From Flavobacteriales bacterium (GTDB taxonomy: Bacteria > Bacteroidota > Bacteroidia > Flavobacteriales_F > PHOS-HE28), in assembly GCA_016715895.1 (NCBI GenBank), contig JADJXH010000004.1, forward strand, positions 287,522-351,521: DNA of 64,000 nucleotides. Direction: 5' to 3'. The notes below the pieces were generated by a model. That model searched no databases. It saw only the letters and a list, made by a program, of their open reading frames with translations, and was not told the origin of the DNA. Position 1 is the stretch's first letter. Each line of letters opens with the position of its first letter. The translations under genes and the position numbers were made by a program. Of the stretch, positions 40,283 to 60,617 are shown piece by piece.

Positions 40283-40302
40283 CGACGGGCGACCGTTGCT
40301 GC

Positions 40303-40329
40303 GAAGGGCCGGGGTTCTCCCGGCCCTTC
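40303..40329 (+). terminator. GC-rich hairpin 21 nt after the stop of the first giant gene (candidate intrinsic terminator or attenuator)
   Basis: GAAGGGCCGGG-gttct-CCCGGCCCTTC: 11-bp perfect stem, extendable to 13 bp. No U-tract follows, which is common in high-GC genomes. Confidence 0.4.
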
Positions 40330-40402
40330 GCCGTTCCAGGCCGGGAACCTTGACGGGTGGATCCCGTATGCACGGCGCGAACCACCCCGCTCTTCGGTGG
40401 AC

Positions 40403-43400
40403 ATGACCGCCCGAACCCCCTTCCTGCACATGCGCCCGGCACTGGTCGTCGGCCTTGTCGTCCTGTGCCTGAGCAGTGCATCGGCCCAGGTCAACGGCCC
40501 GATGCCGACCCTCGGCACGGACCTGTGGACCGGCTTCATGCAGAACGCCTATGGTGCCCAGGAGACGCGGTTGTACATCAGCGCGCCCTCCGCCACCACT
40601 GGCACGGTGAGCATTCCCCAGACCGGCTGGAGCCAGGCCTTCAGTGTTCCGGCGAACGGGGTCGTGCAGGTGAACGTCCCCAACACCGCCGAACATGTCG
40701 GTTCCGAAACAGTGACCGGAAAAGGGGTCCGGATCCAGGCGGTCGCACCCGTGGCCGTCACCGCGGTGAGCTACCAGAGCTACACCCATGATGGCACCCA
40801 GGTGCTTCCGGTGGAAGCGCTGGGCACCGACTACTTCGCCGAGGCCTACCGCGGCCTCCCCGGGTTCAACGAATTCTACAAGAGCGAGCTGCTCATCGTG
40901 GCCACCACCGATGACACGGAAGTGGAGATCACCCCCAGCGTGAACACCGCCGGGGGGCGGCCCGCAGGCGTCCCCTTCACGGTGATGCTCGACGAGGGCC
41001 AGAGCTATCAGGTGCAATCGGCCCTGTCGTCGCTGGACCTCACGGGCACGCGCGTCCGGGCCACAGCGGCGAGCGGTCCCTGCCGTCCCTTCGTGGTGCT
41101 CAGCGGGAGCATGTGCGCCAATGTGCCGGTGGGCTGCCCGGCCTGCGACCACGTGGTGGAGCAGATGCTCCCACTGGAGCGCTGGGGCACCTCGTTCAAG
41201 ACCTTCCTGCCCGGCGGGATCTCCAATGCGACCGTGCGCGTCCTTGCCGGCCAGAACGGCACCAGCGTCACCGTGAACGGAGGCGCGCCCATCTCCCTGA
41301 ACGCCGGCCAGGCCCACGAACTGAACGGACTTGCAGGCACCGCGTGCATCAACGCGTCGGCGCCCGTCTCGGTGGTCGTCATCTATGAAGGGTACAACTG
41401 CGCCAACGCGGGCGACCCCTCGATGGTGGTGATCGAACCGGACGACCGCACGACCACCTCCACCACCTTCAGCACGGTGAGTTCGCCGCAGATCACCGGC
41501 CACCGGGTGGAACTGGTGGTGCCCACCGCCGTGGTGGGCCAGGTGGCCGTGGATGGCACAGCCGTGCCGGCCGGCAGCTTCACGGCCTTCGCCACGTGCC
41601 CCACCTGGTCGCATGCCAGCCGCACGATCACCTCGGGCACGCACCGCGTCACCGCTCCGCAGGGCATCCATGTGTACGCCACCGGCTTCGGCACGGGCGA
41701 GAGCTATGCGTTCAACGCCAACGCCACCGAGGTACCGGTGGTGGTGCAGGACTCGCTGCTGTGCGTGAACGGGCCGGTGACGTTGACCTCGCCCGAGCCC
41801 ATGGACAACCCGCAGTGGGAGGCCGCCAGCACACCGGGGGTGGTGCTCGCCAACGGGCTGAGCTACTCGTTCACACCCACCACCAACGACACGTACACGG
41901 TCTCCGGCACGGCACCGGGATCCACCTGTCCCCTGGAGTTCACGTTCCATGTCGGCATCCAGGTGCCCGTGACGGTGGAGGCCACGGCCAACGGAGGGAA
42001 CGCGGCCCAGATCTGCCAGTACCAGCCCGTGCAGCTCGGCACCACGCCGAACCTCGACCCCAATGCCTATGCGCTGAACTGGACACCGGCGGCCGTGGTG
42101 AGCGACCCCACCATCCCCGACCCGGTGGCCTATCCGATGACCACCACGTGGTTCAAGCTGAACGTGACCAGCCCACTGGGCTGCGGCAGCGCCACCGACA
42201 GTGTGCTCGTTCAGGTGACACCGAACACGGTGCACAGTGTGGAGGCCATCACGGCCGACAGCATCATCTGCCTGGGGGACGCGGTGCAACTGGGCACCCG
42301 CACGCAGCGGATGATCGGCTTCGACCCGTTGGACAACACCACCTCGGCGATGTGGGCCCAGGTGCAGGGCGGTGGCGTGAGCGGCACCTGTGGGGCGGTC
42401 AACGGCAACGCGCTCCTGTTCAATGGAACGGGCACGCGGCAGGCACGCACCACCCCCGCCAACGTGCCCCAGGGCGGCACCCTGATGTTCAGCCTGTGGA
42501 TCTCGGGCGGCACGGCACCCTGTGACGGTGCCGAACCCGGGGAGGACGTGGTGGTGGAATACAGCTTGAACGGGGTGGCCTGGACGGTGATCCAGACCTT
42601 GAACGAGTCGCAATACCCGGCCTTCACCCCGCTCACCCTGGCCATCCCGCCCGCCGCATGGTCCGCCGCCACGCACTTCCGCTGGCGCCAGCTGGCCAAC
42701 AGCGGTGCCGCGCAGGATGTGTGGGCACTGGACAACGTGACGCTCACCCGGGTGGACAACACCGGGGTGCCGCTCCTGTGGTCGCCTGGCGCCACGCTGA
42801 ACGATCCGACGAGCGCGAGCCCGGTGGCCACACCCCTGGCCGACACCTGGTACACCGTGGAGGCCACCAGCGGAACGGGATGCACGGTCAGCGATCCGGT
42901 GTTCGTCCAAGTGGCCCCGGCCTTCACCATCAACGCCGGGAATGACGTGCTGCTCTGCGGCGGCGGACAGATCCAGCTGCAGGCCACCGCCAGTTCCGGC
43001 CAGGGCATCCAATGGAGCTGGGCCCCGAACAACGGAAGCCTGAACAGCACGACCATCGCTGCGCCCATGGCCAGCCCCACCGCCACCACGACCTACACCG
43101 CCACGGCCACCAGCAGCATCGGATGCACGGCGAGCGATGCGGTGACCGTGACGATGGGGCCCCAATTGGGCCTCAGCCTCAGCGCCAGTGACCTCACGCT
43201 GTGCCAGGGGGAGAGCAGCCAGTTGAACGCCGTGATGCAGGGCACAGGGACCTTGCAGCTCCTCTGGAACAACGCCGGCAGCCTCAGCAGCGCCACCGCC
43301 CCGAACCCTGTGGCCACGCCAAGCGGGACGACCACCTACACGGCCACCCTCACGGACACGCAGACCGGCTGCAGCACCCAGGCCTCGATCACGATCGCGG

Positions 43401-45406
43401 TGACCACCGCGTACAGCATCGCGGCCACGGAGGACACCACCCTGTGCAACGCACTGGGCTTCCAGCTCGATGTGCAGCACAACGTGCCCGCACCGTTCAC
43501 CATCGCGTGGACCCCGGCCGCCCTCCTGAACTCAGGGAGCATCGCATCCCCCACGGTGATGGCCGACACCACGATGCTCTTCGAGGTGACGATCACCGAT
43601 GCGAACGGCTGCTCGGTGACGGATTCCGTGCGCATCACCGATGCGTTCGACAGCATGGTGAACCCGGTGAACATCGCGGGATGCGTCGGCCAGAACGTGG
43701 TGCTGGACGCCGGGTTCCCCGGAAGCACCTACGTCTGGGCGCACGGCCCGACCACGCAGACGGTCACGGTGACCGCCAGCGGCACGTACGTGGTGGAGAT
43801 CACGGACGCCCAGGGCTGCCAGACCACCAAGACCTTCAACGTCGCGCTGAACGCCTTGCCAGCGCTCGACCTGGGGCCTGACAGCCTGCTCTGCGGGGTC
43901 ACCGCGTTCACCATCCAGGCCAACAGCCCGGGCAGCACTGTGGTGTGGGGCAATGGCAGCACGGGGCAGCAGTTCCAAGCGACGGGCAGCGGCACCTACA
44001 CCGCCACCGCCACCAGCGCACAAGGATGCGTGAGCACGGACGCGGTGACCCTCACCTTCGCGCCGATGCCGATCGACGCATTGCAGGACATCACGGCCTG
44101 CTCCACCACTTCGGTGACGCTCGACGCGGGCAACCCCGGGAGCTCCTACCTGTGGAACACGAACGCGACCGGCCAGTCGATCCCGGTGACCACGAGCGGC
44201 ACGTACAGTGTGCTTGTGACCGATCCCCAGGGCTGCAGCGCCACGTTCGATGCCCAGGTCGTTCTGGTGGAACCGCCTGTGGTCGACCTGGGACCCGACA
44301 CCACGGTTTGCACCGGTCCGGGTGTCGTGCTGGACGCCGGCAACCCGGGCAGCACCTACCTGTGGAGCACCGGCGCCACGGGACAGACCATCAGCCCCTC
44401 GCAGAGCGGCCTCTACGGGGTCCTGGTCAGCAACTCCGTCTGCCAGGCGTCGGACAGCGTGATGCTCACCGTGCTTCCCGGGCCGGTGGACGGACCGATC
44501 GACGCCACCGCGTGCACCGGCGAACCCGTGCTGCTCGACGCCGGCAACCCCGGAAGCACCTACGCCTGGAGCACCGGGGCGACCACACGGACCATCACAG
44601 CTGCCACGGCGGGAACGTACACCGTGCTGGTGACCACGGCGCAGGGCTGCACCGGTTCCTTTGATGCCGCGGTGACCTTCGTCCCCTGGCCCGTCGTGGA
44701 CCTGGGACCGGACACGGCCCTGTGCCAGGGCGATGTGCTGACCCTGGATGCAGGCAACCCCGGCGCAGCGTACACCTGGAGCACGGGCGCCACTGCACGC
44801 ACCATCGACGTGGTGCAGAACGGCACATACAGCGTCACCGTGGACAACGGATACTGCAGCGTGAGCGACGCCGTGGTGACCGGTTTCAATCCGCGTCCCA
44901 GCAGCATGCCCGTGCACCAGATCTTCACCTGCCTGGACGAGGAGCCGCATTTCGTGGTGATCGATGCCGGCAATCCGGGCTCGCGCTTCGACTGGAGTTC
45001 GGGGGAGACCGCACAGATCATCCTTGCCGGCGCGTACGGCTGGTACTTCGTCGACATCACCAACACGTTCAACTGCGGTCTGCGCGACTCGGTGAAGGTG
45101 AACGAGTTCTGCCCGGCGAGCATCTATGTGCCCAACACCTTCACCCCCAACGCCGATGGCATCAACGACACCTGGGGGCCGGTGGGCAAGAACGTGGCCA
45201 CGATGGAACTGATCGTGTTCGACCGCTGGGGTGGAGTGCTTTGGCAGACCAACAGCCCCACCGACCAATGGGACGGCACCGCACATGGTGCGGAGGTCCC
45301 CAACGAGGTCTATGTGTGGAAGATGCGCTACCGCTTCGTGGACGACGAGCAGGGTGGCGTGGGCATGGAACAGGAGCGCATGGGGCACGTGACGGTCATG
45401 CGCTGA
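40403..45406 (+). CDS. Giant (~1,667 aa) paralogue of the preceding adhesin-like protein (same N-domain, repeat modules, type-B T9SS CTD)
   Basis: 'PTLGTDLWTGFMQNAYG...LYISAP' N-domain. The same 'LDAGNPGSTY.WSTGATTQTI' modules. C-terminus 'EFCPASIYVPNTFTPNADGINDTWGPVGKNVATMELIVFDRWGGVLW...QWDGTAHGAEVPNEVYVWKMRYRF'. First ATG is at 40403 (the ORF track starts at GTG 40397). Confidence 0.8.
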   Translation: MTARTPFLHMRPALVVGLVVLCLSSASAQVNGPMPTLGTDLWTGFMQNAYGAQETRLYISAPSATTGTVSIPQTGWSQAFSVPANGVVQVNVPNTAEHVGSETVTGKGVRIQAVAPVAVTAVSYQSYTHDGTQVLPVEALGTDYFAEAYRGLPGFNEFYKSELLIVATTDDTEVEITPSVNTAGGRPAGVPFTVMLDEGQSYQVQSALSSLDLTGTRVRATAASGPCRPFVVLSGSMCANVPVGCPACDHVVEQMLPLERWGTSFKTFLPGGISNATVRVLAGQNGTSVTVNGGAPISLNAGQAHELNGLAGTACINASAPVSVVVIYEGYNCANAGDPSMVVIEPDDRTTTSTTFSTVSSPQITGHRVELVVPTAVVGQVAVDGTAVPAGSFTAFATCPTWSHASRTITSGTHRVTAPQGIHVYATGFGTGESYAFNANATEVPVVVQDSLLCVNGPVTLTSPEPMDNPQWEAASTPGVVLANGLSYSFTPTTNDTYTVSGTAPGSTCPLEFTFHVGIQVPVTVEATANGGNAAQICQYQPVQLGTTPNLDPNAYALNWTPAAVVSDPTIPDPVAYPMTTTWFKLNVTSPLGCGSATDSVLVQVTPNTVHSVEAITADSIICLGDAVQLGTRTQRMIGFDPLDNTTSAMWAQVQGGGVSGTCGAVNGNALLFNGTGTRQARTTPANVPQGGTLMFSLWISGGTAPCDGAEPGEDVVVEYSLNGVAWTVIQTLNESQYPAFTPLTLAIPPAAWSAATHFRWRQLANSGAAQDVWALDNVTLTRVDNTGVPLLWSPGATLNDPTSASPVATPLADTWYTVEATSGTGCTVSDPVFVQVAPAFTINAGNDVLLCGGGQIQLQATASSGQGIQWSWAPNNGSLNSTTIAAPMASPTATTTYTATATSSIGCTASDAVTVTMGPQLGLSLSASDLTLCQGESSQLNAVMQGTGTLQLLWNNAGSLSSATAPNPVATPSGTTTYTATLTDTQTGCSTQASITIAVTTAYSIAATEDTTLCNALGFQLDVQHNVPAPFTIAWTPAALLNSGSIASPTVMADTTMLFEVTITDANGCSVTDSVRITDAFDSMVNPVNIAGCVGQNVVLDAGFPGSTYVWAHGPTTQTVTVTASGTYVVEITDAQGCQTTKTFNVALNALPALDLGPDSLLCGVTAFTIQANSPGSTVVWGNGSTGQQFQATGSGTYTATATSAQGCVSTDAVTLTFAPMPIDALQDITACSTTSVTLDAGNPGSSYLWNTNATGQSIPVTTSGTYSVLVTDPQGCSATFDAQVVLVEPPVVDLGPDTTVCTGPGVVLDAGNPGSTYLWSTGATGQTISPSQSGLYGVLVSNSVCQASDSVMLTVLPGPVDGPIDATACTGEPVLLDAGNPGSTYAWSTGATTRTITAATAGTYTVLVTTAQGCTGSFDAAVTFVPWPVVDLGPDTALCQGDVLTLDAGNPGAAYTWSTGATARTIDVVQNGTYSVTVDNGYCSVSDAVVTGFNPRPSSMPVHQIFTCLDEEPHFVVIDAGNPGSRFDWSSGETAQIILAGAYGWYFVDITNTFNCGLRDSVKVNEFCPASIYVPNTFTPNADGINDTWGPVGKNVATMELIVFDRWGGVLWQTNSPTDQWDGTAHGAEVPNEVYVWKMRYRFVDDEQGGVGMEQERMGHVTVMR

Positions 45407-51595: not shown

Positions 51596-52018
51596 TTACT
51601 GACCTGGGTAGGCCTTCCGCGTGGCCGCGATGGACCGCTTGATCATCGCCTTCAACACCCTCAGGTCGATGTCGGCCAGGCGCTTCACGTACAAGCAGCC
51701 CTTCGTGGCCTTGTGCTTCCCCAGTTTGGCCAGCACCTCCGGCTCCAAGGCCTCCTGGCCCAGGTAGATGACCAGCTCCGGCTTGCGCGGGCTGAAGGCC
51801 GCGAGGGGCGCGCTGCCCGAATGACCGCTGGCGTAAGTGTAGTGGTAGGTTCCGAAGCCGATGATTGACGGGCCGTACATGTGGGGCTGCTCGCCGGTCA
51901 GCTCCTGCATCAGATTCACAAGCACCCGGCTGTCATCGCGCATCTCCTCCTTGGGGTGCTTGTCGATGAAAGCCTCCACATTAGCGGTGGTGGCCTGGGT
52001 CTTGTTGGCCTTCGCCAT
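51596..52018 (-). CDS. DUF1801 (YdhG-like) domain protein
   Basis: 140 aa. 'VEAFIDKHPKEEMRDDSRVLVNLMQELTGEQPHMYGPSIIGFG' and 'GCLYVKRLADIDLRVLKAMI' match the DUF1801 layout. Confidence 0.55.
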   Translation of the reverse strand: MAKANKTQATTANVEAFIDKHPKEEMRDDSRVLVNLMQELTGEQPHMYGPSIIGFGTYHYTYASGHSGSAPLAAFSPRKPELVIYLGQEALEPEVLAKLGKHKATKGCLYVKRLADIDLRVLKAMIKRSIAATRKAYPGQ

Positions 52019-52021
52019 GGC

Positions 52022-52294
52022 TCAGAACTGCTTGTCCAGCTCGACGTACTGCACCTGGGCCATGTGCGGGAAGTAGGGCAGGGTGCCGATCAGCTCCTTC
52101 GCCCGGCCCAACTCCACCCCGCTCAGGAGCAGGAACGCCCCCGTCCGGTCGGTGCTGATGAAGAAGCTCTCGAGGAGCCCCTCCTCCTTCCACCGGTTGA
52201 CGAACTCCATCTCCACCTTCTGTAGCTCCGGGGTGGCCCGGATGTGCGCCATGCCTTCGGGGGAAAGGGAGATGGAGACGAGGATGCGTTTCAT
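52022..52294 (-). CDS. Small muconolactone-isomerase-like (dimeric alpha/beta barrel) protein
   Basis: 90 aa. 'LIGTLPYFPHMAQVQYVEL' resembles the MIase 'LPLFPYMDIEV' region. Tentative. Confidence 0.35.
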   Translation of the reverse strand: MKRILVSISLSPEGMAHIRATPELQKVEMEFVNRWKEEGLLESFFISTDRTGAFLLLSGVELGRAKELIGTLPYFPHMAQVQYVELDKQF

Positions 52295-52538
52295 CGGGAT
52301 CGGGTTGGACGGGGCAAGAATAAGGAGCGGAGGTGATGAAGGTGGTATGGCCCCATGTGGTCAGTAATCCTGGGGATGATGTGCCGCGTGAGGGATAGGA
52401 GCAAGTAGCCCGCACCCCGAGGCTTTGCGAGGGGGAGGACTACTGCGGATAGCCCGACGGCGCGCTCCCGAGCGGAGGCTTTGCGCAGCGAAGGGACGGC
52501 GCCGGCACGCCCAGAACAAGCCTCAAGTCACAAAGCTA

Positions 52539-53654
52539 TTGATCCGGCATTCATGATCTGGACTCAGGCTGCGTAACGAACGGTGTCTTTCTGGAACAGT
52601 GCGATGATGCGCTTGGGGTGTCGCTGGAGGGAACGCAGGAAGCGTGATGTGAAGAGTTCAAGCTGCCCCTTCTTGCGTGCTGGAGCGTGCTTGGTGACGG
52701 CATCCTTCAGCGCTGCGTTCGCTACTTCCACCGGGTTGAGTTCGGGCGAATAACTCGGCAGGTGGAAGACCTCGATGCTCTCCAGATGCTCCTCGAGCCA
52801 TTCCTTGACCGGCTTGCTGTGGTGGACCCTGAGGTTGTCCAAGATCAGGAACACCTTGTTGTCGCTATCCTTGACCAGTCTTCTCAGAAAGCCGATCAGG
52901 ATGCTGCTGTTCAGTGCGCCCTTGAAGACCATCCAGCGCATTTCCCCGCGATTGGTCACCGTGGAGATCACCGAACAGCCGTGGCGGTTGTGGTTCACCC
53001 TGACCACGGGAGTGTGGCCTCGCAGGGAGTAGCTGCGCCCGCGAACGTCATCACTGCGCAGACCGGTCTCATCGCCCCAGTGGATCACGGCACCTTCAGC
53101 CTTGGCACGTGCACGGATGGCCGGATAATCCTCGTGCAGCCACTTGCGCACCGCCTCCGGTCGCTGCTCGTAGGCCTTGCGCAGTGGCTTCTGCGGCGTA
53201 AATCCCCAGCGCTCCAGATAGAGCCCCACACTGCGTATGGCCAGCTTGCGGTCGTAGCGCCGCTCGATCAGCTCGCGCACCGCTTGCCGGTTCCACAACG
53301 CATAAGGCATTTTCAACTGATCGGGCGTTCTGTCACGGATCAGCCGTTGTGTCTCCTTCTCCTGCTCACTTGTCAGGATGCGTCCCTTGCCCACCGGGCG
53401 ACCGGTCTTCCACACACGAATGGCCTTCCAGCCACCGGCCTTGTACCGTTGCCAGGCTTCGTTCACCGTGTTGCGGGACATGCCACAGAGTTCGGCCGTT
53501 TCCTTCAGGCCCATGCCCTTGAGCCTGCATTGCACCGCCTGCCTACGACGCTCATTGAGCTCGGGCATCGACAGCTTCCTGGAGTCGTTCTCGCGCATGC
53601 CTCGGCAAGATCCACAGATCGTGCCGATCGTCCGCTATATCGATGCCGGATCAA
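52539..53654 (-). mobile_element. IS630-family insertion sequence (1,116 bp) with 12-bp terminal inverted repeats and TA target-site duplication
   Basis: Ends TTGATCCGGCAT (52539..52550) and ATGCCGGATCAA (53643..53654). Each is flanked by TA (52537-38 and 53655-56), the hallmark IS630/Tc1 target duplication. Interior is a single DDE transposase gene. Lower GC than the flanks. Confidence 0.75.
52564..53598 (-). CDS. IS630-family transposase (N-terminal HTH + DDE_3 domain)
   Basis: 344 aa. HTH 'ELCGMSRNTVNEAWQRYKAGG'. DDE_3 motifs 'VIHWGDETGLRSDD', 'FLILDNLRVHHSKPVKEWL', 'FHLPSYSPELNPVEVANAALK'. Confidence 0.85.
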   Translation of the reverse strand: MRENDSRKLSMPELNERRRQAVQCRLKGMGLKETAELCGMSRNTVNEAWQRYKAGGWKAIRVWKTGRPVGKGRILTSEQEKETQRLIRDRTPDQLKMPYALWNRQAVRELIERRYDRKLAIRSVGLYLERWGFTPQKPLRKAYEQRPEAVRKWLHEDYPAIRARAKAEGAVIHWGDETGLRSDDVRGRSYSLRGHTPVVRVNHNRHGCSVISTVTNRGEMRWMVFKGALNSSILIGFLRRLVKDSDNKVFLILDNLRVHHSKPVKEWLEEHLESIEVFHLPSYSPELNPVEVANAALKDAVTKHAPARKKGQLELFTSRFLRSLQRHPKRIIALFQKDTVRYAA

Positions 53655-53774
53655 TAAAGCCCCAAGCTTCAAAGGCGTGCCTTGGGCCTTGATGCTTGTA
53701 GCTTGAGAATTGAAGCTTCGCTCCCTCCCCTACCTTCGCCCTATTCACCTACGCCGAGGCTTCGGCGAATTACA

Positions 53775-55079
53775 ATGCGATACACACCGCTCTCTGCGTC
53801 CACCTACCGCGAGCACCGCGCCCGTTTCCGCCAGCACCTGGAGAAAGGGGGTCTGGCCGTGTTCCACAGCAACGACATCATGCCCACCAGCGCCGATGGC
53901 ACGATGCCGTTCAAGCAGGCCAGCGACATCTTCTACCTCACCGGCATCGACCAGGAGGAGACGATCCTGCTGCTGTTCCCTGATGCGGTGGACCCGAAGG
54001 ACCGCGAGATCCTCTTCGTGCGCGAGACCAGCGAGCTGATCGCGATCTGGGAGGGCGCCAAGTTCAGCCAGCAGGAGGCACGCGACCTGAGCGGCATCGC
54101 CACCGTGCTGTGGACGAGCAGCTACGAGGCCACGATCAAGCGCCTGGTGCCGCAGTGCGAGCACCTGTACCTGAACAGCAACGAGCACCTGCGCCAGCAC
54201 AACGAGGTGGAGACGCGCGAGGACCGCAAGAACAAGGAACTGCGCGCCCAGTACCCGCTGCACAGCGTGAAGCGCAGCGCGCCGATCATGCACCGCATCC
54301 GCAGCCGCAAGACGCAGGAGGAAGTGGCGCAGATGAAGCGCGCGATCGCCATCACCGGCAAGGCCTTCGAGCGGGTGTGCGGCTTCGTGAAGCCCGGCGT
54401 GAAGGAGTACGAGATCGAAGCGGAGATCACGCACGAGTTCCTGCGCAACGGCTCACGCGGCCATGCCTACACGCCCATCATCGCCAGCGGCTACAACGCC
54501 TGCGTGCTGCACTACATCACCAACGACCAGGTGTGCATCGATGGCGATGTGATCCTGATGGACTTCGGCAGCGAGTACGGCGGCTACGCCAGCGACCTCA
54601 CCCGCTGCATCCCCGTGAACGGCCGCTTCACCGACCGCCAGCGCGCGGTGTACAACGCCGTGCTCCGCGTGAAGAACGAAGCCACGCAACTGCTGCGTCC
54701 CGGCACCCTGCTGGCCGACTACCACAAGGAAGTGGGGAAGATCATGGAGAGCGAGCTGATCGGCCTGGGCCTGCTGGACAAGACCGATGTGGCGAAGCAG
54801 GACCCCGAGCGTCCGCTGTACAAGAAGTACTTCATGCACGGCACCAGCCACTTCCTGGGCCTGGATGTGCACGATGTGGGCCTGTGGAACGAGATGATCC
54901 AGCCGGACATGGTCTTCACCGTGGAGCCGGGCATCTACATCCGCGAGGAGAAGCTGGGCATCCGCTTGGAGAACAACATCCTGGTGACGCGCGACAACCC
55001 GATCGACCTGTTCGCGGACATCCCCGTGGAGGCGGAGGCGGTGGAGGAGTTGATGAGCCGGAGGAAGGTTGAGGCGTGA
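53775..55079 (+). CDS. pepP: Xaa-Pro aminopeptidase (M24B family, PepP-like)
   Basis: Creatinase/prolidase N-domain, then the M24 pita-bread metal-binding motifs 'DFGSEYGGYASDLTR', 'HGTSHFLGLDVHD', 'VFTVEPGIY'. Start trimmed to MRYTPLSAST. Confidence 0.85.
   Translation: MRYTPLSASTYREHRARFRQHLEKGGLAVFHSNDIMPTSADGTMPFKQASDIFYLTGIDQEETILLLFPDAVDPKDREILFVRETSELIAIWEGAKFSQQEARDLSGIATVLWTSSYEATIKRLVPQCEHLYLNSNEHLRQHNEVETREDRKNKELRAQYPLHSVKRSAPIMHRIRSRKTQEEVAQMKRAIAITGKAFERVCGFVKPGVKEYEIEAEITHEFLRNGSRGHAYTPIIASGYNACVLHYITNDQVCIDGDVILMDFGSEYGGYASDLTRCIPVNGRFTDRQRAVYNAVLRVKNEATQLLRPGTLLADYHKEVGKIMESELIGLGLLDKTDVAKQDPERPLYKKYFMHGTSHFLGLDVHDVGLWNEMIQPDMVFTVEPGIYIREEKLGIRLENNILVTRDNPIDLFADIPVEAEAVEELMSRRKVEA
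54966..55079. repeat. Direct repeat copy 1 (authentic 3' end of pepP incl. TGA)
   Basis: About 112 bp, ~96% identical to 56106..56217 (55-nt identical run, then 2 mismatches, a 38-nt identical run, 2 mismatches, then 'aggcgtga'). Confidence 0.85.
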
Positions 55080-55408
55080 GCGGCTCTGCTCTCCGGGTTC
55101 GTGGCATCGTTCGGAACGTGGGACGCACACTACAGTTCCTGCAACTGGGGCTCATCCTGTTCTTCGTGTACCACATCGTGGACGCATTCATCACGCCGTA
55201 TCAAAGCGAGTGGCTCACGGCTGAAGCCTTTGTACCCGGGCTTATCCTCGCGATCCTCTTCTACAGCTTCTGTCTGCTGGTCACCCAATGGGTCGTCGTG
55301 TTCGCGGAACACCGGCTTGCTTGGTTGCTCTTGATCCCGATCGCGGTGGTCACGCTGGTGCCCTTTGCACTCCTCCTGCTGGAGCCGATACGCGTGATGG
55401 GCGCGTGA
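55076..55408 (+). CDS. Small 3-TM membrane protein (hypothetical), first gene of the inserted cassette
   Basis: GTG start overlapping the pepP stop (GTGA). Three hydrophobic helices (LQLGLILFFVYHIV, FVPGLILAILFYSFCLLV, LAWLLLIPIAVVTLVPFALLLL). Confidence 0.45.
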   Translation: MSGSALRVRGIVRNVGRTLQFLQLGLILFFVYHIVDAFITPYQSEWLTAEAFVPGLILAILFYSFCLLVTQWVVVFAEHRLAWLLLIPIAVVTLVPFALLLLEPIRVMGA

Positions 55409-55446
55409 TCGCGCATGAGCCCTAGCATTGCATTTAACTTCGCTCC

Positions 55447-55776
55447 ATGCTCGCCGACCTGATCAACGGCCATCGTCAACAGTTCATCGACCTGTGCAAG
55501 GCGCACCGGGTAAAGGAACTGTATGCCTTTGGATCGGCGGTCAACGGCCCGTTCACGGCGCAGAGCGACGTGGACCTGTTGGTGGAGATCGAGCTGGACA
55601 ACCCCGTGGAGGATGGTGAACGGCTATGGTCGTTCTGGGATCGGATGGAAGCGTTCTTCCAGCGCAAGGTGGACCTGCTTACGCCCCGCTCTTTACAGAA
55701 CCCGGTGAAGAAGCGCGCCATCGAGGCCTCCAAGAAGCTGATCTACGATGGAGCGACTGGACGGCTACTATGCTGA
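55447..55776 (+). CDS. Nucleotidyltransferase (Pol-beta superfamily, MNT-type antitoxin)
   Basis: 'LYAFGSAVNGPFTAQSDVDLLVE' is the GSx9-13DxD minimal NTase motif. 109 aa. 3' end overlaps the HepT start. Confidence 0.75.
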   Translation: MLADLINGHRQQFIDLCKAHRVKELYAFGSAVNGPFTAQSDVDLLVEIELDNPVEDGERLWSFWDRMEAFFQRKVDLLTPRSLQNPVKKRAIEASKKLIYDGATGRLLC

Positions 55777-56086
55777 TATCCTTCGGGCCATTGACCTGAT
55801 CGAGGCCTTCATGGCCCAGGGGAATGTCTCCTCGTTCGAGGCATACACCCGGCACGCACTGGTGAAGAGCGCCGTGGAGCGCCAGCTTGGCATCATCGGT
55901 GAAGCAGTGAACAAGATCCGGAAGCTCGACCCGTCACATCCGATCCCCGAGGCGGACCGCATCGTGCAGTTCAGGAACCGGTTGATCCATTCGTACGATA
56001 CGATCGACGACACGTTCGTGTGGCCCATCCTCCAGAAGCACCTACCTGCTTTGAAGAACGCCATTCAGCAGGCGCGGAAGAGCTGA
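55748..56086 (+). CDS. HepT-like (DUF86) RNase toxin
   Basis: 112 aa, all-helical. Rx4HxY active-site motif 'RNRLIHSYD' near the C-terminus. Overlaps the MNT gene by 29 nt, the typical MNT-HepT arrangement. Confidence 0.75.
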   Translation: MERLDGYYADILRAIDLIEAFMAQGNVSSFEAYTRHALVKSAVERQLGIIGEAVNKIRKLDPSHPIPEADRIVQFRNRLIHSYDTIDDTFVWPILQKHLPALKNAIQQARKS

Positions 56087-56105
56087 ACACCTAGGGCAAA
56101 CGCGT

Positions 56106-56217
56106 GGAGAACAACATCCTGGTGACGCGCGACAACCCGATCGACCTGTTCGCGGACATTCCGGTGGAGGCGGAGGCGGTGGAGGAGTTGATGAGCCGGA
56201 GGAAGGTAGAGGCGTGA
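56106..56217. repeat. Direct repeat copy 2 (duplicate of the pepP 3' end, downstream of the cassette)
   Basis: See copy 1. Would encode the last 36 aa of PepP plus TGA. No upstream ORF continues into it in frame. Confidence 0.85.
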
Positions 56218-56237
56218 TCCGCTCCTCCATGCACCAG

Positions 56238-56265
56238 GGAGCCCCGCGAACGATCGCGGGGCTCC
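56238..56265. terminator. GC-rich hairpin between convergent units (candidate bidirectional terminator; likely the ancestral pepP terminator)
   Basis: GGAGCCCCGCG-aacgat-CGCGGGGCTCC: 11-bp perfect stem. Lies 21 nt after repeat copy 2 and 24 nt before the stop of the minus-strand cargo gene. Confidence 0.45.
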
Positions 56266-56288
56266 TATGGTCGAGATCGGGCCTGCCG

Positions 56289-58124
56289 CTACTCCTTCAC
56301 CACCATTCGGGTGAAGCGTGCTCCGCTGCCCATCACCTCACAGAGGTATACACCCTTTGCCAGGTCGCTCACATCAACGGCCGAGCGTTCACCGGAAGTG
56401 CGCATCGCACGGACGACGCGCCCGGAGGCATCACGCAGCGTGAGCTCGGCGCCAGCGGCGATACCCGGTGTCAGCACCACGAGCTGCTCGGTCGCCGGGT
56501 TGGGGAACACCTGAACCCCCATGGAGCGGCGGTGGTCCGACAATCCCACGGTGACGAGGTGCGGAGCACAAACGGACAAGGCGTTCTCCTCGGCGATGCC
56601 GAACACTTCGGCCATGCCGCCCACGTCGCCGATGACGCTGGCGAGCGCACTGTCCGCCGCGGCCTGCAGGGCGTTGACACTGGCCAGCGGACCGCCGGAG
56701 GGTGCTTGGGCGAAGAGGTAGGCGAACAGCAGGTCGGCATGTTCGCCGGACTCCAGAACGAAGGGTCCGGTGACGCCGATCATGCGGCGGTCGCCCGGTG
56801 TGTTGCCCTCACCCACCTCGGACCACGGCGCCTGTGCCGCACCATCCGTGCCCGCTCCGAGGGGATCGCTGTCGCCAGGGTACATGAACCGCGCTGGCAC
56901 CGCGTTCGGGTCCTGCGAGTACCCGTTCCCCCCGTAGGTCTGCGGCAGGCCGTCCAGCCATTGCCCGGCCAGGTAACGCTCCACATCAACGGCGGTCTGA
57001 GGGATGCCGGTGGCGCCGGATGCCGTGGAGTAGATGCGGCTGCTCGTGAGCCCGAAGCGCTCATTGTCGATCTGCTGGTCTGCAAAGCCCTGGCCGTTGA
57101 AGCCGGGGATGAGGGGAACGACCGGGTCGTCATTGCCATCGGCCTCCACCAGCGGACCCTTGATGAGCCGCACACCGAAGGCGGGGGGCTGGCCGCCATA
57201 GCCGGGGCCCCAGAAGGACGGACCATCGAATCCATCCCCGTTGTACGCGTACCACAGGTTGCGCGACGGGTCGGTCCCGATCATGTCATCCTCCGGGTCT
57301 CCCAGGTCGAAGTCGGTGTGCAACCCGATGCGCACATCGGTGTACGCGTTGCTGCTGCGGTTGATGACGTGCGCGCGCAGAAAGAGCGTGTTGGCCAGTT
57401 CGGGGTCGTTCGTATCGAAGACGAAGGGCATCAACCTGAGCTCGATGCCGAGCGGCGGACCCTGCGAGAAACTGTGCGGCCGTTGGTCGTTCAGCACCAT
57501 GAAGCAGGCACGATCGCCCAGGATGCAGGGCACATCACCGAAGGCCGGATCGTAGGTGCCATCCCCATCGCGGTCCACGAACGGTGCCTGATAGGGGGCC
57601 AGGCCGAGGGCGATATCCCCCATCGCCGGCCAGTCGAGCAGGGACTGCGCGGGTTGGTATCCAGGGTACACGAGGGCCTCCTCGCAATCGGGGTCGTCCA
57701 CACAGTCGTGGTAGTTCAGGTGCTGTTCGATGTCGAAGCGCTCCACGCACCAGATGCGGTCGTAGGCCTGGGCCACACCGGGCAGGGCGGTGGCGGAGCC
57801 GTCGGTGGTGAGCGGACCGGTCCAATAATCGGAATCGAACAGACCTCCATAGTCCGCCCCGGCGGCATGCAGCGTATCACCCGGACCACGCCCGGTGACC
57901 CACAATCCGCTGCCCCAGAGGACATGGGCGCCCGTTCCCGGCGGCACTTCGAACGCGGGGCTGGCCCCATCGGCCCCCGCACCGATCAAGCCCCAGGAGG
58001 TGAGCCCCACCTCCAGGCGGTCGTTCCCGATGGATGTGATCGCGGTGCCCTGTGCGGTCCCGTCAACGGGGATCGCCCAGGCATGCGCGGACAACAGCGC
58101 GAGGCAGAGTGAAGATCGGATCAT
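56289..58124 (-). CDS. T9SS cargo protein (hypothetical body, type-A C-terminal sorting domain)
   Basis: Signal peptide 'MIRSSLCLALLSAHAWA'. Asp/Gly-rich body. C-terminus 'VFPNPATEQLVVL...LTLRDASGRVVRAM...LAKGVYLCEV' is a Por_Secre_tail. Confidence 0.65.
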   Translation of the reverse strand: MIRSSLCLALLSAHAWAIPVDGTAQGTAITSIGNDRLEVGLTSWGLIGAGADGASPAFEVPPGTGAHVLWGSGLWVTGRGPGDTLHAAGADYGGLFDSDYWTGPLTTDGSATALPGVAQAYDRIWCVERFDIEQHLNYHDCVDDPDCEEALVYPGYQPAQSLLDWPAMGDIALGLAPYQAPFVDRDGDGTYDPAFGDVPCILGDRACFMVLNDQRPHSFSQGPPLGIELRLMPFVFDTNDPELANTLFLRAHVINRSSNAYTDVRIGLHTDFDLGDPEDDMIGTDPSRNLWYAYNGDGFDGPSFWGPGYGGQPPAFGVRLIKGPLVEADGNDDPVVPLIPGFNGQGFADQQIDNERFGLTSSRIYSTASGATGIPQTAVDVERYLAGQWLDGLPQTYGGNGYSQDPNAVPARFMYPGDSDPLGAGTDGAAQAPWSEVGEGNTPGDRRMIGVTGPFVLESGEHADLLFAYLFAQAPSGGPLASVNALQAAADSALASVIGDVGGMAEVFGIAEENALSVCAPHLVTVGLSDHRRSMGVQVFPNPATEQLVVLTPGIAAGAELTLRDASGRVVRAMRTSGERSAVDVSDLAKGVYLCEVMGSGARFTRMVVKE

Positions 58125-58401
58125 GGCAACAGGGTTTGCCGCCAACCTATCGGAAGGTGAAGCGACCCGCATGCGCCGATCGACGGAAGGCGGTATCGGT
58201 TCAGGGACCGGTGCGGGAGAACGGCTCAGCTGCGCTCCCCGGTTGCGCCGGGCACCAGCACAAAGACCACCTCGACCTCTTTGCCGGCCGTGGTGCCGCT
58301 CTCGAAAGGAACATGGGCCATGCCGTTGCGATCGATGCGCAGCACATTGCCCACGATGGTGAGGGCCCGGTAAGAGGGAATGACGGCGGCGGGTGCGTGC
58401 A

Positions 58402-58767
58402 TCAGACGGCGCGGCGCAGGTGGATGGGCTTCACCGTGCTCACTTCGCCATCGAGCACCATCAGGAAATACTCCTCCCCATCCAGGTCGGTGATGCGCAC
58501 GCGCGTGACGGGTCCACTGACATCGCCGGTCTTGACGATCCGGCCGCTGGGGTCCACGATGTCGAACAGCGCATCCTGGGAGGCGGGGTCATAGTCGAAC
58601 ATCAGCAGGCGCTCGAGCTGGTCGATGCGCACGTGGATCTCGTGGGGGGTGGTGTGCTGGGCCATGGGCCTGTTCTTCACCCCGTTGTACGACATCATCG
58701 GGGGCAGGGTTGCCCAAGAACGCCGGAGGGCCGGCCCACCACCCGGCGGACCGACCCTCCACACCAA
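58402..58767 (-). CDS. Small hypothetical protein (~97-121 aa)
   Basis: Coding-like ORF. Probable start at MMSYNG or MAQHTT. An overlapping 59-aa ORF (ATG at 58410-58412, 'MHAPAAVIPSYRALTIVGNV...') continues downstream. No recognisable domain. Confidence 0.3.
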   Translation of the reverse strand: MVWRVGPPGGGPALRRSWATLPPMMSYNGVKNRPMAQHTTPHEIHVRIDQLERLLMFDYDPASQDALFDIVDPSGRIVKTGDVSGPVTRVRITDLDGEEYFLMVLDGEVSTVKPIHLRRAV

Positions 58768-58995
58768 AACCTGACATGAGCACTGCGCGGTTCAACTGCC
58801 CTGGTCGGAGAAGATCCAGAGCTTGTGATGGGAGTTCATGGAAGCCATGGCAACAAGGGGTTTGCGTTCAATGGTGACCCCAACCTACCATGCCCGACGC
58901 CCGATCGCCAGCGCGATCCGGGCAACGGTCGCGACGAAGAGAAGAACGGTCGCTCCGGTGGTGCCGCTATTTTCGCCGGCATGGGGTCGCGGCGG

Positions 58996-59754
58996 ATGCG
59001 GGCATTGATCGTGGACGATGAGGAACCGGCCCGGGAGAACCTGCGCCTGATGCTGGAGGACCTCTGCCCCGAGGTGGAGGTGGCGGGAACGGCCGATGGA
59101 CCGGCGAGCGCGCGCGAGCGGATCGCGGAGCTTGACCCCGACCTGCTCTTCCTGGACATCCGCATGCCCAGTGGCACCGAGGGCCTCGACCTGCTGGCCG
59201 AGCTCCGCGACCTGCGCGCCCTGGTCGTCTTCGTCACGGCCTTCAAGGACTACGCGCTGCAGGCCTTTCACACCCATGCGGTGGACTACCTGTTGAAGCC
59301 GATCGATCCCGATGAGCTGCGGGCGGCGGTGATGAAGGCCCTCGAGCGGGTGCGTGAACAGCATGAACGGCCAGCGGAGGCCACGGCGTATCGCGCAAGG
59401 TTGAACGCCGCCGTCCGCGAGGCCTCGCTGCCCGCGGGCCGCATCGTGATCGATCACGCCAAAGGGTTCAAGCTCTTCGACCCGCACAACATCAGCCACC
59501 TGGAGGCCGAGGGCAACTGCACCCAGCTGCACTTCAGCGATGGCACGCGCTACCTCGACACCCGCACCCTGCGTGTGTATGAGGAACTGCTCGATCCGTC
59601 CTTGTTCCTGCGGGTGCATCGCTCGCACATCGTGAACCTGGAGCACCTGCGTGAATACCTGCGCGACGACGGCCATTGGGCGGTGCTCCGCGACGGGCGG
59701 AGGGTCCCGATCGCTCGCGAGCGCGTGGCCGAGTTCCTCGAACGCGTCCGCTGA
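58996..59754 (+). CDS. Response regulator, LytTR family (REC + LytTR DNA-binding domain)
   Basis: REC 'MRALIVDDEEPARENL...LLFLDIRMP...VVFVTAF'. LytTR 'HLEAEGNCTQLHFSDGTRYLDTRTLRVYEELLDPSLFLRVHRSHIVNLEHL'. Start trimmed to MRALIV. Confidence 0.85.
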   Translation: MRALIVDDEEPARENLRLMLEDLCPEVEVAGTADGPASARERIAELDPDLLFLDIRMPSGTEGLDLLAELRDLRALVVFVTAFKDYALQAFHTHAVDYLLKPIDPDELRAAVMKALERVREQHERPAEATAYRARLNAAVREASLPAGRIVIDHAKGFKLFDPHNISHLEAEGNCTQLHFSDGTRYLDTRTLRVYEELLDPSLFLRVHRSHIVNLEHLREYLRDDGHWAVLRDGRRVPIARERVAEFLERVR

Positions 59755-59864
59755 CGGTCCACATGGCCGGGATGACGGTCCGCTCGATCGGGCGCACCGG
59801 TCAGGCGACGGTCACCCAAGCCACCGCGGACCGACCTAGCTTGAGCCCACCAAACCCATCGGCC

Positions 59865-60617
59865 ATGCGTGTACTGATCGTGGACGACGAACCCGACGCC
59901 CGGGAGAACCTGCGGATGATGCTGGAGGAGCACTGCCCCGACCTGGTCGTGGTGGGCTCGGCGGGAAGCGCCCAGGAGGCGCGCGAACTGATCGCGATGG
60001 AACACCCGCAGGCGCTCTTCCTCGACATCAAGATGCCGGGAGAGGATGGCTTTGCGCTGCTTCATTCCCTGCAAGGGCAGGAGCTTCCGGTGGTCTTCAC
60101 CACCGCCTACGACGAATATGCGCTGCAGGCCTTCAAGGAGAACGCCCTGGACTACCTCGAGAAGCCGATCGATGTGGAGGAGCTCAAGCGGGCGGCCGCA
60201 AAGCTCCGCCGCATGGCGTCGGACCCCGCGGCCGCACCGCAACAGACCGGTGCCATCGCGGCGCTGCTCCTGGACCCCGCCTCCCCCTTGAGCAAACGCA
60301 TGGCCGTTCCGGGTCGCGACGGGCTCACCTTGGTGAAGCATGAGGACATCCTCTACCTGGAGGCCAGCGACAGCTACACCACCATCCACACACGCGACGG
60401 CAAGCGGCAGATCAGCAGCAAGCACATCCGGGTCTTTGAGAACAACCTGGACCCGAAGCGCTTCTTCCGCGTCCACAAGTCATACATCATCAACCTGGAG
60501 CACCTGCGCGCGTTCAGCCGGGGGGAAGGCAACATGGCCGTGCTGGACAACGGCGCCATGATCCCCGTTTCGCGCCGCAAAATGCCCGACTTCCTTGCCC
60601 TGATCCCCACCTTCTGA
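59865..60617 (+). CDS. Response regulator, LytTR family (second, tandem copy)
   Basis: REC 'MRVLIVDDEPDARENL...ALFLDIKMPGEDG...VVFTTAY'. LytTR 'YLEASDSYTTIHTRDGKRQISSKHIRVFENNLDPKRFFRVHKSYIINLEHL'. Stop overlaps the HK start. Confidence 0.85.
   Translation: MRVLIVDDEPDARENLRMMLEEHCPDLVVVGSAGSAQEARELIAMEHPQALFLDIKMPGEDGFALLHSLQGQELPVVFTTAYDEYALQAFKENALDYLEKPIDVEELKRAAAKLRRMASDPAAAPQQTGAIAALLLDPASPLSKRMAVPGRDGLTLVKHEDILYLEASDSYTTIHTRDGKRQISSKHIRVFENNLDPKRFFRVHKSYIINLEHLRAFSRGEGNMAVLDNGAMIPVSRRKMPDFLALIPTF

Follow-up and report, generated by a model that had tools for sequence, protein, structure and literature searches.

The locus downstream of pepP

The window analysed here is a 64-kb stretch of contig JADJXH010000004.1 from a Flavobacteriales bacterium, and the subject is the interval behind its pepP gene, in which a gene for a small membrane protein and a predicted toxin-antitoxin (TA) pair lie between two copies of the pepP 3' end. 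The pair consists of a minimal nucleotidyltransferase (MNT) and a HepT ribonuclease (RNase). Coordinates refer to the window, L-numbers denote comparison loci, pepP' is the second copy of the pepP 3' end, and negative offsets (e.g. -128) are nucleotides counted back from the pepP stop. The features of the interval and its flanks are:

53775..55079, plus strand: pepP, intact, Xaa-Pro aminopeptidase of the M24 family (Pfam AMP_N 2.3e-28, Peptidase_M24 4.2e-60)
54967..55079, plus strand: repeat copy 1, the functional pepP 3' end, with TGA at 55077-55079 and C-terminal type ELMSRRKVEA
55076..55408, plus strand: slot gene 3TM-A, 110 aa, three membrane segments predicted from hydropathy, PYQSEWL motif, GTG start overlapping the pepP TGA
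55435..55446, plus strand: leader AACTTCGCTCC, left edge of the MNT-HepT module, where TA homology starts in every context
55447..55776, plus strand: MNT (MntA-like minimal nucleotidyltransferase), predicted antitoxin (Pfam NTP_transf_2 3.6e-12, Polbeta 9.6e-10)
55748..56086, plus strand: HepT (HEPN/DUF86 RNase), predicted toxin (Pfam HepT-like 3.9e-19)
56087..56104, plus strand: putative old illegitimate junction ACACCTAGGGCAAACGCG, HepT 3' flank joined to decayed pepP (about -128 to -114)
56105..56217, plus strand: repeat copy 2 (pepP'), displaced non-functional pepP 3' end, three synonymous differences from copy 1
56238..56265, no strand: GC-rich hairpin between the convergent pepP' and type IX secretion system (T9SS) genes, strong fold, unique in the window
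56289..58172, minus strand: secreted protein with a T9SS C-terminal sorting domain (Pfam Por_Secre_tail 2.3e-08)

The two copies form a direct repeat of 113 nt (54967-55079 and 56105-56217, spacing 1138) with three mismatches (55022 C/T, 55025 C/G and 55070 T/A), all of which are at third codon positions and synonymous in the pepP frame. To the left of this block, decayed homology continues for another 12-15 nt or so, up to about -128 (window ...CTAGGGCAAACGCG, pepP ...CTGGGCATCCGCT), and to the right weak homology reaches about 7 nt beyond the stop. In a scan of the window, no direct repeat other than the pepP-end pair reached a length of 45 nt at 90% identity or more; a genome-wide habit of duplicating 3' ends was discarded on the grounds that the 64 kb hold no second such repeat. 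The insert between the copies (55080-56104) comprises 1,025 nt with a GC content of 0.590, compared to a window mean of 0.662 (standard deviation 0.028). It is the lowest in GC in the window, with 0.2% of 1,025-nt windows reaching a value as low. The ELMSRRKVEA type of copy 1 is also found in other carriers of the cassette.

In its 81-nt context, the hairpin folds at -47 kcal/mol (z = -4.3). It is probably the original pepP terminator, with homologous hairpins located directly after pepP in L085, which is an empty site, after pepP' in L175, and after HepT in L176. An interpretation as a REP-like (repetitive extragenic palindromic) repeated hairpin was rejected, as the motif is single-copy in the window. 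Homologues of the T9SS gene adjoin the locus in L003, L083, L085, L088, L173 and L176 and constitute a conserved right flank. The original prediction, made from the letters of the window, had described a repeat of the pepP 3' end around a low-GC insert with a three-segment membrane protein, MNT and HepT, followed by a hairpin taken to be the ancestral pepP terminator. All of these elements were recovered, the repeat as 113 nt with 3 mismatches, and the assignment of the hairpin agrees with its position directly after pepP at empty sites.

The MNT-HepT pair

MNT has 109 aa and HepT 112 aa, and the start of HepT overlaps the end of MNT by 29 nt. Their translations contain the motifs GSX10DXD (G29-S30-AVNGPFTAQS-D41-V-D43 in MNT) and RX4HXY (R76-NRLI-H81-S-Y83 in HepT). 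Class I HepT/MntA systems are defined by neighbouring PF01909 and PF01934 genes in combination with these two motifs (Yao et al., 2020; PMC7641770). The Pfam scores exceed the gathering thresholds (47 vs 21 bits for PF01909 in MNT, 69 vs 23.5 bits for PF01934 in HepT), and the NCBIfam equivalogs MntA_antitoxin (NF047752, 40.5 bits) and HepT_toxin (NF047751, 37.2 bits) were missed at cutoffs of 60. Further matches of MNT were the candidate system PDC-S09 in PADLOC (4.9e-20) and the minimal nucleotidyltransferase 1wot in the PDB (1.4e-4). For HepT, 1,625 homologues were found at E<=1e-10, and a sequence search against solved structures returned no match.

With both motifs present and MNT preceding HepT, the identity proposed for the pair in the original prediction stands, and we assign it at the sequence level as a divergent member of class I HepT/MntA. 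It shares with the described systems (PMC7641770) the order of the genes, the overlapping reading frames, the Pfam pair and both motifs, and differs from them in scoring below the equivalog cutoffs, in a HepT without a sequence-detectable solved relative, and in its placement inside a repeat-flanked, recombining locus. As a standard type VII TA system of this class, it is predicted to comprise an RNase, HepT, that is neutralised by MNT through AMPylation of the tyrosine of RX4HXY (Y83).

The limits of the module are well marked. TA homology starts at 55434/55435 in L003, L082, L173, L176, L177 and L179/180 and stops near the HepT stop, and these limits are the same at the pepP locus and at the unrelated loci L177 and L179/180, where the TA module also occurs.

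Empty and occupied sites in relatives

Orthologues of pepP with 79-96% amino-acid identity were found in metagenome-assembled genomes (MAGs) and metagenomes of uncultured high-GC Flavobacteriales, many of them from activated sludge. In these relatives, the stretch from pepP to a conserved small minus-strand gene and a LytTR regulator is extremely variable. An empty arrangement, in which pepP is followed by the hairpin and the minus-strand T9SS gene, is present in L085, L084, L005 and L004, and in an empty variant (L002) pepP is followed by the small minus-strand gene. In L011 and L098, pepP precedes membrane genes resembling GldL_N with an 'HWPG' motif, and in L083 it is followed by another membrane-protein gene (TM-B) without the TA pair, then the hairpin, an HWPG gene and the T9SS gene. 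Two loci contain the TA pair without duplication: pepP, TM-B, MNT, HepT, HWPG and T9SS in L003, and pepP, an open reading frame (ORF) termed ORF143, MNT, HepT, hairpin and T9SS in L176. Occupied alleles are those of the window, L163-166, L173-175 and L181-184. The carriers fall into two separate pepP clades and are interleaved with empty sites.

Judged by the empty sites in relatives, the window segment appears to be an insertion with duplication relative to the empty arrangement. A search for empty sites had been suggested in the original prediction; it yielded such alleles in four lineages (L085, L084, L005 and L004), none of which is from the species of the window.

On the right, the variable region is bordered by the conserved gene mentioned above (58402-58767, minus strand), which adjoins the LytTR response regulators and encodes a protein of about 85 aa with homologues in L001-L006, L011, L087, L089 and L176. 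Its core reads '...IRLRIDQ(I/L)ERLLMFDYEPG...VTRVRITDL.GEEYYLMVLDG', and it has no match in Pfam or NCBIfam. The region upstream of pepP is variable too (L169:1118-3403, L170, L171:1460-3389). In L169-L171 it contains a second, unrelated MNT/HepT pair (96 and 115 aa), followed by an FRG-domain or DUF4062 protein, and pepP is therefore bordered on both sides by accessory, defence-like genes. A 3'-end duplication was sought around this second pair in L169 and L171, and none was found.

Old junction and young pepP'

A string behind HepT, GAGCTGAACACCT(A)GGG(C/A)CAAACGC, is common to the window, L173/174, L175 and L183/184, with a diverged form in L163. The HepT-to-pepP' junction is thus shared by at least four diverged lineages, and is also present, diverged, in L163-166. 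In the lineages sharing it, the TA region is 4-14% diverged from that of the window, and the two pepP ends within a locus are 81-87% alike. Because the same string occurs in lineages 4-14% diverged, the illegitimate joint between HepT and pepP' appears to have been made once and to be older than the splits of these lineages.

The right half of pepP', in contrast, varies between lineages, and the functional pepP ends that it matches are those of non-carriers. L181 and L163 have a '...SRRKAFA' type (KAFA), nearest to the functional end of the empty-site lineage L084 (90% and 84%); the L181 copy is continuous with downstream sequence and a hairpin that resemble those of L084. L173 has a '...ANKGNKVVA' type (KGNKVVA), nearest to L176 and L088 (88%) and L005, and the right half in L175 is nearest to L083. 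The functional pepP ends of the carriers are all ELMSRR(K/N)VxA, including that of L173, whose upstream pepP groups with empty-site lineages. Such a mosaic would be expected from recombination between empty alleles and a cassette that brings along the left part of pepP', one crossover being in pepP and the other inside pepP'; equivalently, empty-type flanks may have recombined in.

In the window, pepP' is nearest to its own copy 1 (98%), followed by copy 1 of L181 (96%), and it has a GTA codon and a 'TC' after the stop in common with the functional pepP end of the sister strains L181/L184. From this, the last 113 nt of the window's pepP' seem to have been overwritten recently by the functional pepP allele of a close relative. 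Such a refresh would account for the 97% identity of the copies, for their synonymous-only differences and for the decayed left border.

Further junctions and arrays

At least six pepP' junction types were distinguished, located 77-166 nt ahead of the stop and associated with different cargo. Their left boundaries are at -77/-80, about -94 or further, -128, -142, -130 to -165, and -166:

Junction i: HepT flank to about -128 (window, L163-166, L173/174, L175, L181-184)
Junction ii: MNT codon 20 to -142 (L088, twice)
Junction iii: 3TM-A stop to -77/-80 (L167/168, L169-172)
Junction iv: decayed distal copy that still overlaps the start of an HWPG gene, like the functional end in L011 (L167)
Junction v: ORF160 to between -130 and -165 (L001, L006)
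Junction vi: gene for a 433-aa secreted protein to -166 (L058, in which PepP is only 60% identical)

Three pepP ends each are present in L088 and L167, with the most distal copy being the most decayed (72% vs 87% in L088). The joint in L088 truncates MNT at codon 20 inside a microhomology (MNT AGGTGAAG, pepP AGGAGAAG, 7/8). The window-type junction is decayed, and a match of GAAGAGCTG and GAGAAGCTG is the only possible microhomology there. A derivation of L088 from the window by simple deletion was rejected, as its pepP' is still clean pepP sequence between -142 and -128, a stretch not present at the window junction.

No recombinase ORF was found between the copies in the window, L001, L006, L058, L088, L167, L169 or L173, no tRNA or transfer-messenger RNA (tmRNA) in 50-60 kb of the window, and no match to an Rfam family in 52000-59000. 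An integrase, tRNA or RNA attachment (att) site was accordingly dismissed for the inserts and the scanned surroundings, as was an integron cassette array, given that there is no integrase, that 52000-59000 has no Rfam match, and that the repeats are plain copies of coding sequence. The only transposase nearby is of the IS630 type (52564-53598, minus strand; 344 aa, apparently intact, DDE_3 and HTH domains). Its position, outside the repeats, is between pepP and the conserved genes upstream, and other carriers lack it; as it is missing at the equivalent position in L001, L011, L083 and L167-L171, it is a window-specific insertion.

In the JGI contig L167 (3705-5004), pepP was called as two ORFs (245 and 178 aa), and about 60 nt, equivalent to 54485-54546 of the window, are unaligned. 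In this locus with three pepP ends, the split could represent a frameshift, a pseudogene or an assembly error.

The gene slot between pepP and MNT

Profile searches with 3TM-A (Pfam, NCBIfam, PADLOC) gave no match. Its family falls into 10 clusters (58-96% identity) and has a conserved PYQSEWL motif; every member that could be located lies directly 3' of pepP. In L167-L172, 3TM genes are bracketed by pepP and pepP' without any TA pair. The TA pair in turn is preceded by no slot ORF (L173), by ORF143 (L176), by TM-B (L003, L082) or by a GldL_N-like ORF (L181-184), and an MNT protein of identical sequence is found in different public samples behind 3TM-A, behind TM-B and behind a 174-aa GldL_N-like ORF that is either intact or truncated. 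Since the identical MNT stands behind several different ORFs, the interval from the pepP stop to the MNT start appears to be a swappable slot between two homology arms. The suggestion that the membrane protein might be a third partner of the TA pair was not sustained: with 3TM occurring without TA and TA without 3TM, such a partnership was rejected on co-occurrence, and the 3TM gene is best described as a separate, resident module neighbouring pepP.

ORF154 (L088:4650-5114) and ORF143 (L176:3233-3664) also fill the slot ahead of MNT. They have in common about 60 nt leading into the MNT start, CGCATGAG(C/T)CGACGTTGAA..., of which the window retains only about 11 nt (GCGCATGAGCC at 55411-55421). 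This suggests that 3TM-A replaced an ORF154/ORF143-like ORF in the lineage of the window.

The HWPG proteins are small membrane proteins with a repeated '...LFK(I/T)(L/Q)HWPG...' that match the N-terminal domain of GldL (T9SS motor PorL/GldL). Members are found in L011 (6636-7553), L001 (8133-8519), L006 (8106-9176), L167 (6155-7072) and L181 (154-678). Their genes are often 3' of pepP or pepP', in several cases with a GTG overlapping the pepP stop. A descent of 3TM-A as a divergent paralogue of the GldL_N-like gene after pepP in L011 was dismissed for want of any similarity.

Proposed mechanism

We consider the interval to be one allele of a hypervariable locus directly 3' of pepP in a clade of uncultured high-GC Flavobacteriales, in which an insertion-duplication made pepP' and homologous recombination subsequently reuses pepP' as a portable homology arm; to this reading we assign a probability of about 0.62. 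pepP is the anchor gene for the recombination. In outline, a piece consisting of a pepP 3' end and MNT-HepT would once have entered an empty site of pepP, terminator and T9SS gene by insertion-duplication, either through a Campbell-type single homologous crossover of a circularised fragment or through homology-facilitated illegitimate recombination (HFIR) anchored in pepP. pepP would have remained whole after the insertion, and the pepP 3' end that was already there would have come to lie downstream as a dead fragment, pepP'. Thereafter, pepP on the left and pepP' or the TA genes on the right would act as homology arms for RecA-type recombination between strains, which would move the cassette to new backgrounds and swap the slot gene and the downstream flank. 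Unequal or Campbell-type exchange would stack units into arrays of two or three pepP ends, and L088 is the product expected from recombination between two alleles sharing the joint between truncated MNT and pepP'. In the window, a recent exchange with the functional pepP allele of a close relative would have refreshed pepP'. A precise repeat-mediated deletion would leave pepP, TGA, TCCGCTCC and the hairpin; addiction to the TA pair may select against such loss of the cassette. The pathway and its direction are what we infer from the arrangement of the alleles.

The mosaic pepP' and the slot variants behind identical MNT lend strong support to the expectation that homologous recombination between the repeats would allow cassettes to be swapped. 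A recent insertion, on the other hand, is not supported, as the same junction is found in lineages 5-14% diverged in nucleotide sequence whose copies are only 83-85% alike, the 97% identity of the copies in the window being attributable to the later refresh. That relatives carry the same two copies at such divergence is in part the pattern that the original prediction had set against its own reading; empty alleles exist alongside them.

Several points weigh against this reading. Recombination was not directly observed, donor and recipient are indistinguishable, and the end product is the same whether it arose by a linear double crossover, a Campbell single crossover or HFIR. Six independent junctions within the last ~170 nt of pepP are accounted for by arguments of ascertainment and selection only. 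Among the recovered loci there is no empty site from the same species, the best pepP match having 96% amino-acid identity, and the exact pepP and T9SS proteins of the window have no database record. The synonymous-only pattern comprises three sites, for which the chance of all being third positions is roughly p = 0.04. Most comparison loci are MAGs, metagenome contigs or unitigs, so that some linkages across the repeats could be mis-assembled. Finally, the TA scores lie under the NCBIfam equivalog cutoffs, and TA activity is predicted from the sequences.

Alternative explanations

A purely local rearrangement would start from ancient, vertically inherited TA and slot genes and proceed by in-situ tandem duplication, deletion and intragenomic gene conversion, with no transfer between strains. 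The structure is indeed largely inherited, as the junction is shared by diverged lineages, and HepT orthologues mostly remain at the pepP locus; moreover, a lineage-specific GAG codon is present in both window copies, and the duplicated unit of truncated MNT and pepP' in L088 resembles a tandem amplification. We nevertheless hold this explanation to be unlikely. The right halves of pepP' comprise at least four types that correspond to functional ends in other lineages and pass without a break into the downstream DNA of those lineages, the distribution of carriers over two pepP clades interleaved with empty sites is incongruent with it, and identical MNT stands behind several slot ORFs. In the window, the GTA codon and 'TC' of pepP' match the functional allele of a sister strain and not its own copy 1, and the three differences between the copies are all synonymous.

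It is quite unlikely, in our estimate, that pepP' serves as the TA cassette's own right-hand homology arm, effecting a selfish knock-in into pepP-bearing genomes via the RecA of the host and with no integrase. Were this the case, the arrays would be additive in the manner of integrons, and loss of the cassette by deletion between the repeats would be countered by the toxin. If such a strategy applied generally, at other anchor genes and in other phyla, it would amount to an unrecognised integrase-free route of cassette mobility.

The original prediction had viewed the repeats as attL and attR of a miniature element. In such a model, an integrase would act in trans on a core in the pepP 3' end, and arrays would arise by serial integration, for which tRNA-targeting islands and integron cassettes provide analogues. 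Integration of this kind classically leaves the target gene restored and its 3' end duplicated at the two junctions; empty sites and arrays with two or three pepP ends exist, the last ~77 nt of pepP are common to all duplications and could hold a core, and the distant lineage L058 (60% amino-acid identity) has the same architecture. We regard the model as decidedly improbable all the same: the left boundaries are heterogeneous, one joint cuts off MNT at codon 20 inside a microhomology, and none of the inserts and flanks inspected contains an integrase, all of which speaks against a fixed att site. In addition, the cargo is often one small ORF, the slot gene swaps at a second breakpoint, the MNT leader, that is unrelated to pepP, and the same TA pair is found at the locus without duplication in L003 and L176.

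An assembly artefact, in which copy 2 would be a mis-join of strain variants over a collapsed repeat, is highly improbable. The window probably stems from a metagenome or MAG, and short-read graphs break at the repeat, inside which the unitigs L081, L165 and L166 stop. Yet the two unique junctions (copy 1 to 3TM-A, HepT to pepP') recur in independent samples, and diverged relatives, whose copies are 83-87% alike and hence assemble unambiguously, show the same architecture in contigs of 5.7-38.7 kb. The unitig L081 (1,095 nt) is identical to 55040-56134, was seen in 3 samples from public runs, and ends exactly one k-mer inside each repeat; L081-L082 and L181-L184 are from samples SRR11674019, SRR36615399, SRR28640823 and SRR27778296. 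The independent contigs that span both copies are L173 (38.7 kb), L169 (36 kb), L167 (13 kb) and L088 (5.7 kb). A check for mis-assembly had been advised together with the original prediction, and the unitig and the long contigs of relatives make a mis-assembled second copy unlikely.

Comparison with known systems

TA modules and small accessory genes spread widely, usually without a mobility gene, and their movement is poorly documented. The pepP locus can be read as a natural record of one route, from a one-off illegitimate joint through the use of a displaced end as homology arm to repeated exchange and stacking, with the exchange between lineages covering cassette, slot gene and downstream flank. 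The processes involved are already known, namely insertion-duplication and HFIR, displacement arrays, and TA pairs in flexible loci, and there is no new enzyme or class of element. By its sequence features, the locus represents a natural example of integrase-free trapping and shuffling of cassettes at the end of a housekeeping gene, the cargo being an ordinary, though divergent, type VII TA pair.

With insertion-duplication and HFIR, the locus shares a conserved anchor gene, foreign DNA trapped beside it, the lack of a dedicated recombinase, and an anchor-end duplication of variable length, 109-950 bp in experiments vs 77-166 nt here; a microhomology at the illegitimate joint is clear in L088. 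Those were laboratory events in E. coli, Acinetobacter and Streptococcus; the products at the pepP locus, in contrast, are natural, fixed, inherited and repeatedly reused, with the pathway being inferred. For HFIR, de Vries and Wackernagel (2002) and Prudhomme et al. (2002) are cited in PMC5361080. A search for HFIR in E. coli most often yielded the product of a single crossover with a circularised fragment, in which 109-950 bp at the end of lacZ were duplicated (Amarir-Bouhram et al., 2011; PMC3240628).

Sequential displacement of the HFIR type has been proposed for orphan arrays at type VI secretion system (T6SS) and Rhs loci (Kirchberger et al., 2017; PMC5361080). In the arrays of Rhs, contact-dependent inhibition (CDI) and T6SS loci (PMC5361080), as at pepP, a new 3' module enters at a conserved gene and displaces the old 3' end, resulting in strings of displaced 3' fragments of which the oldest are the most distal and the most decayed. 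Unlike in these arrays, the anchor here is a cytoplasmic housekeeping aminopeptidase instead of a polymorphic toxin, displacement has left non-coding scars of 65-170 nt instead of toxin tips with immunity genes, and the cargo is a TA pair or small membrane or secreted ORFs. The locus would thus extend sequential displacement, known from polymorphic-toxin loci, to a housekeeping gene in uncultured Flavobacteriales, and it raises the idea that an addictive TA pair may hold in place an insertion which, being flanked by repeats, would be lost by deletion without it.

Islands inserted by integrases into tRNA, tmRNA and 3' ends of protein genes, as well as integron arrays, resemble the locus in their 3'-end direct repeats with restoration of the target gene, in the existence of empty and occupied alleles, and in additive arrays. 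They differ from it in that the pepP locus is without integrase, fixed att core or attC-like structure, has heterogeneous boundaries, and carries cargo down to a single ORF.

Neighbouring genes

Two tandem paralogues of LytTR-type response regulators are located at 58825-60200. They give rise to direct repeats at 59029/59898 and 59223/60089 with 71-83% identity and a spacing of about 867 nt. Upstream of pepP, 36100-44800 contains two large genes or regions that are paralogous and spaced by about 4.7-5.1 kb, with many internal repeats of about 210 nt that encode modules of the type '...D.GNPGS.Y.WS.G.T.Q.I...'; these are probably genes for giant repetitive cell-surface proteins.

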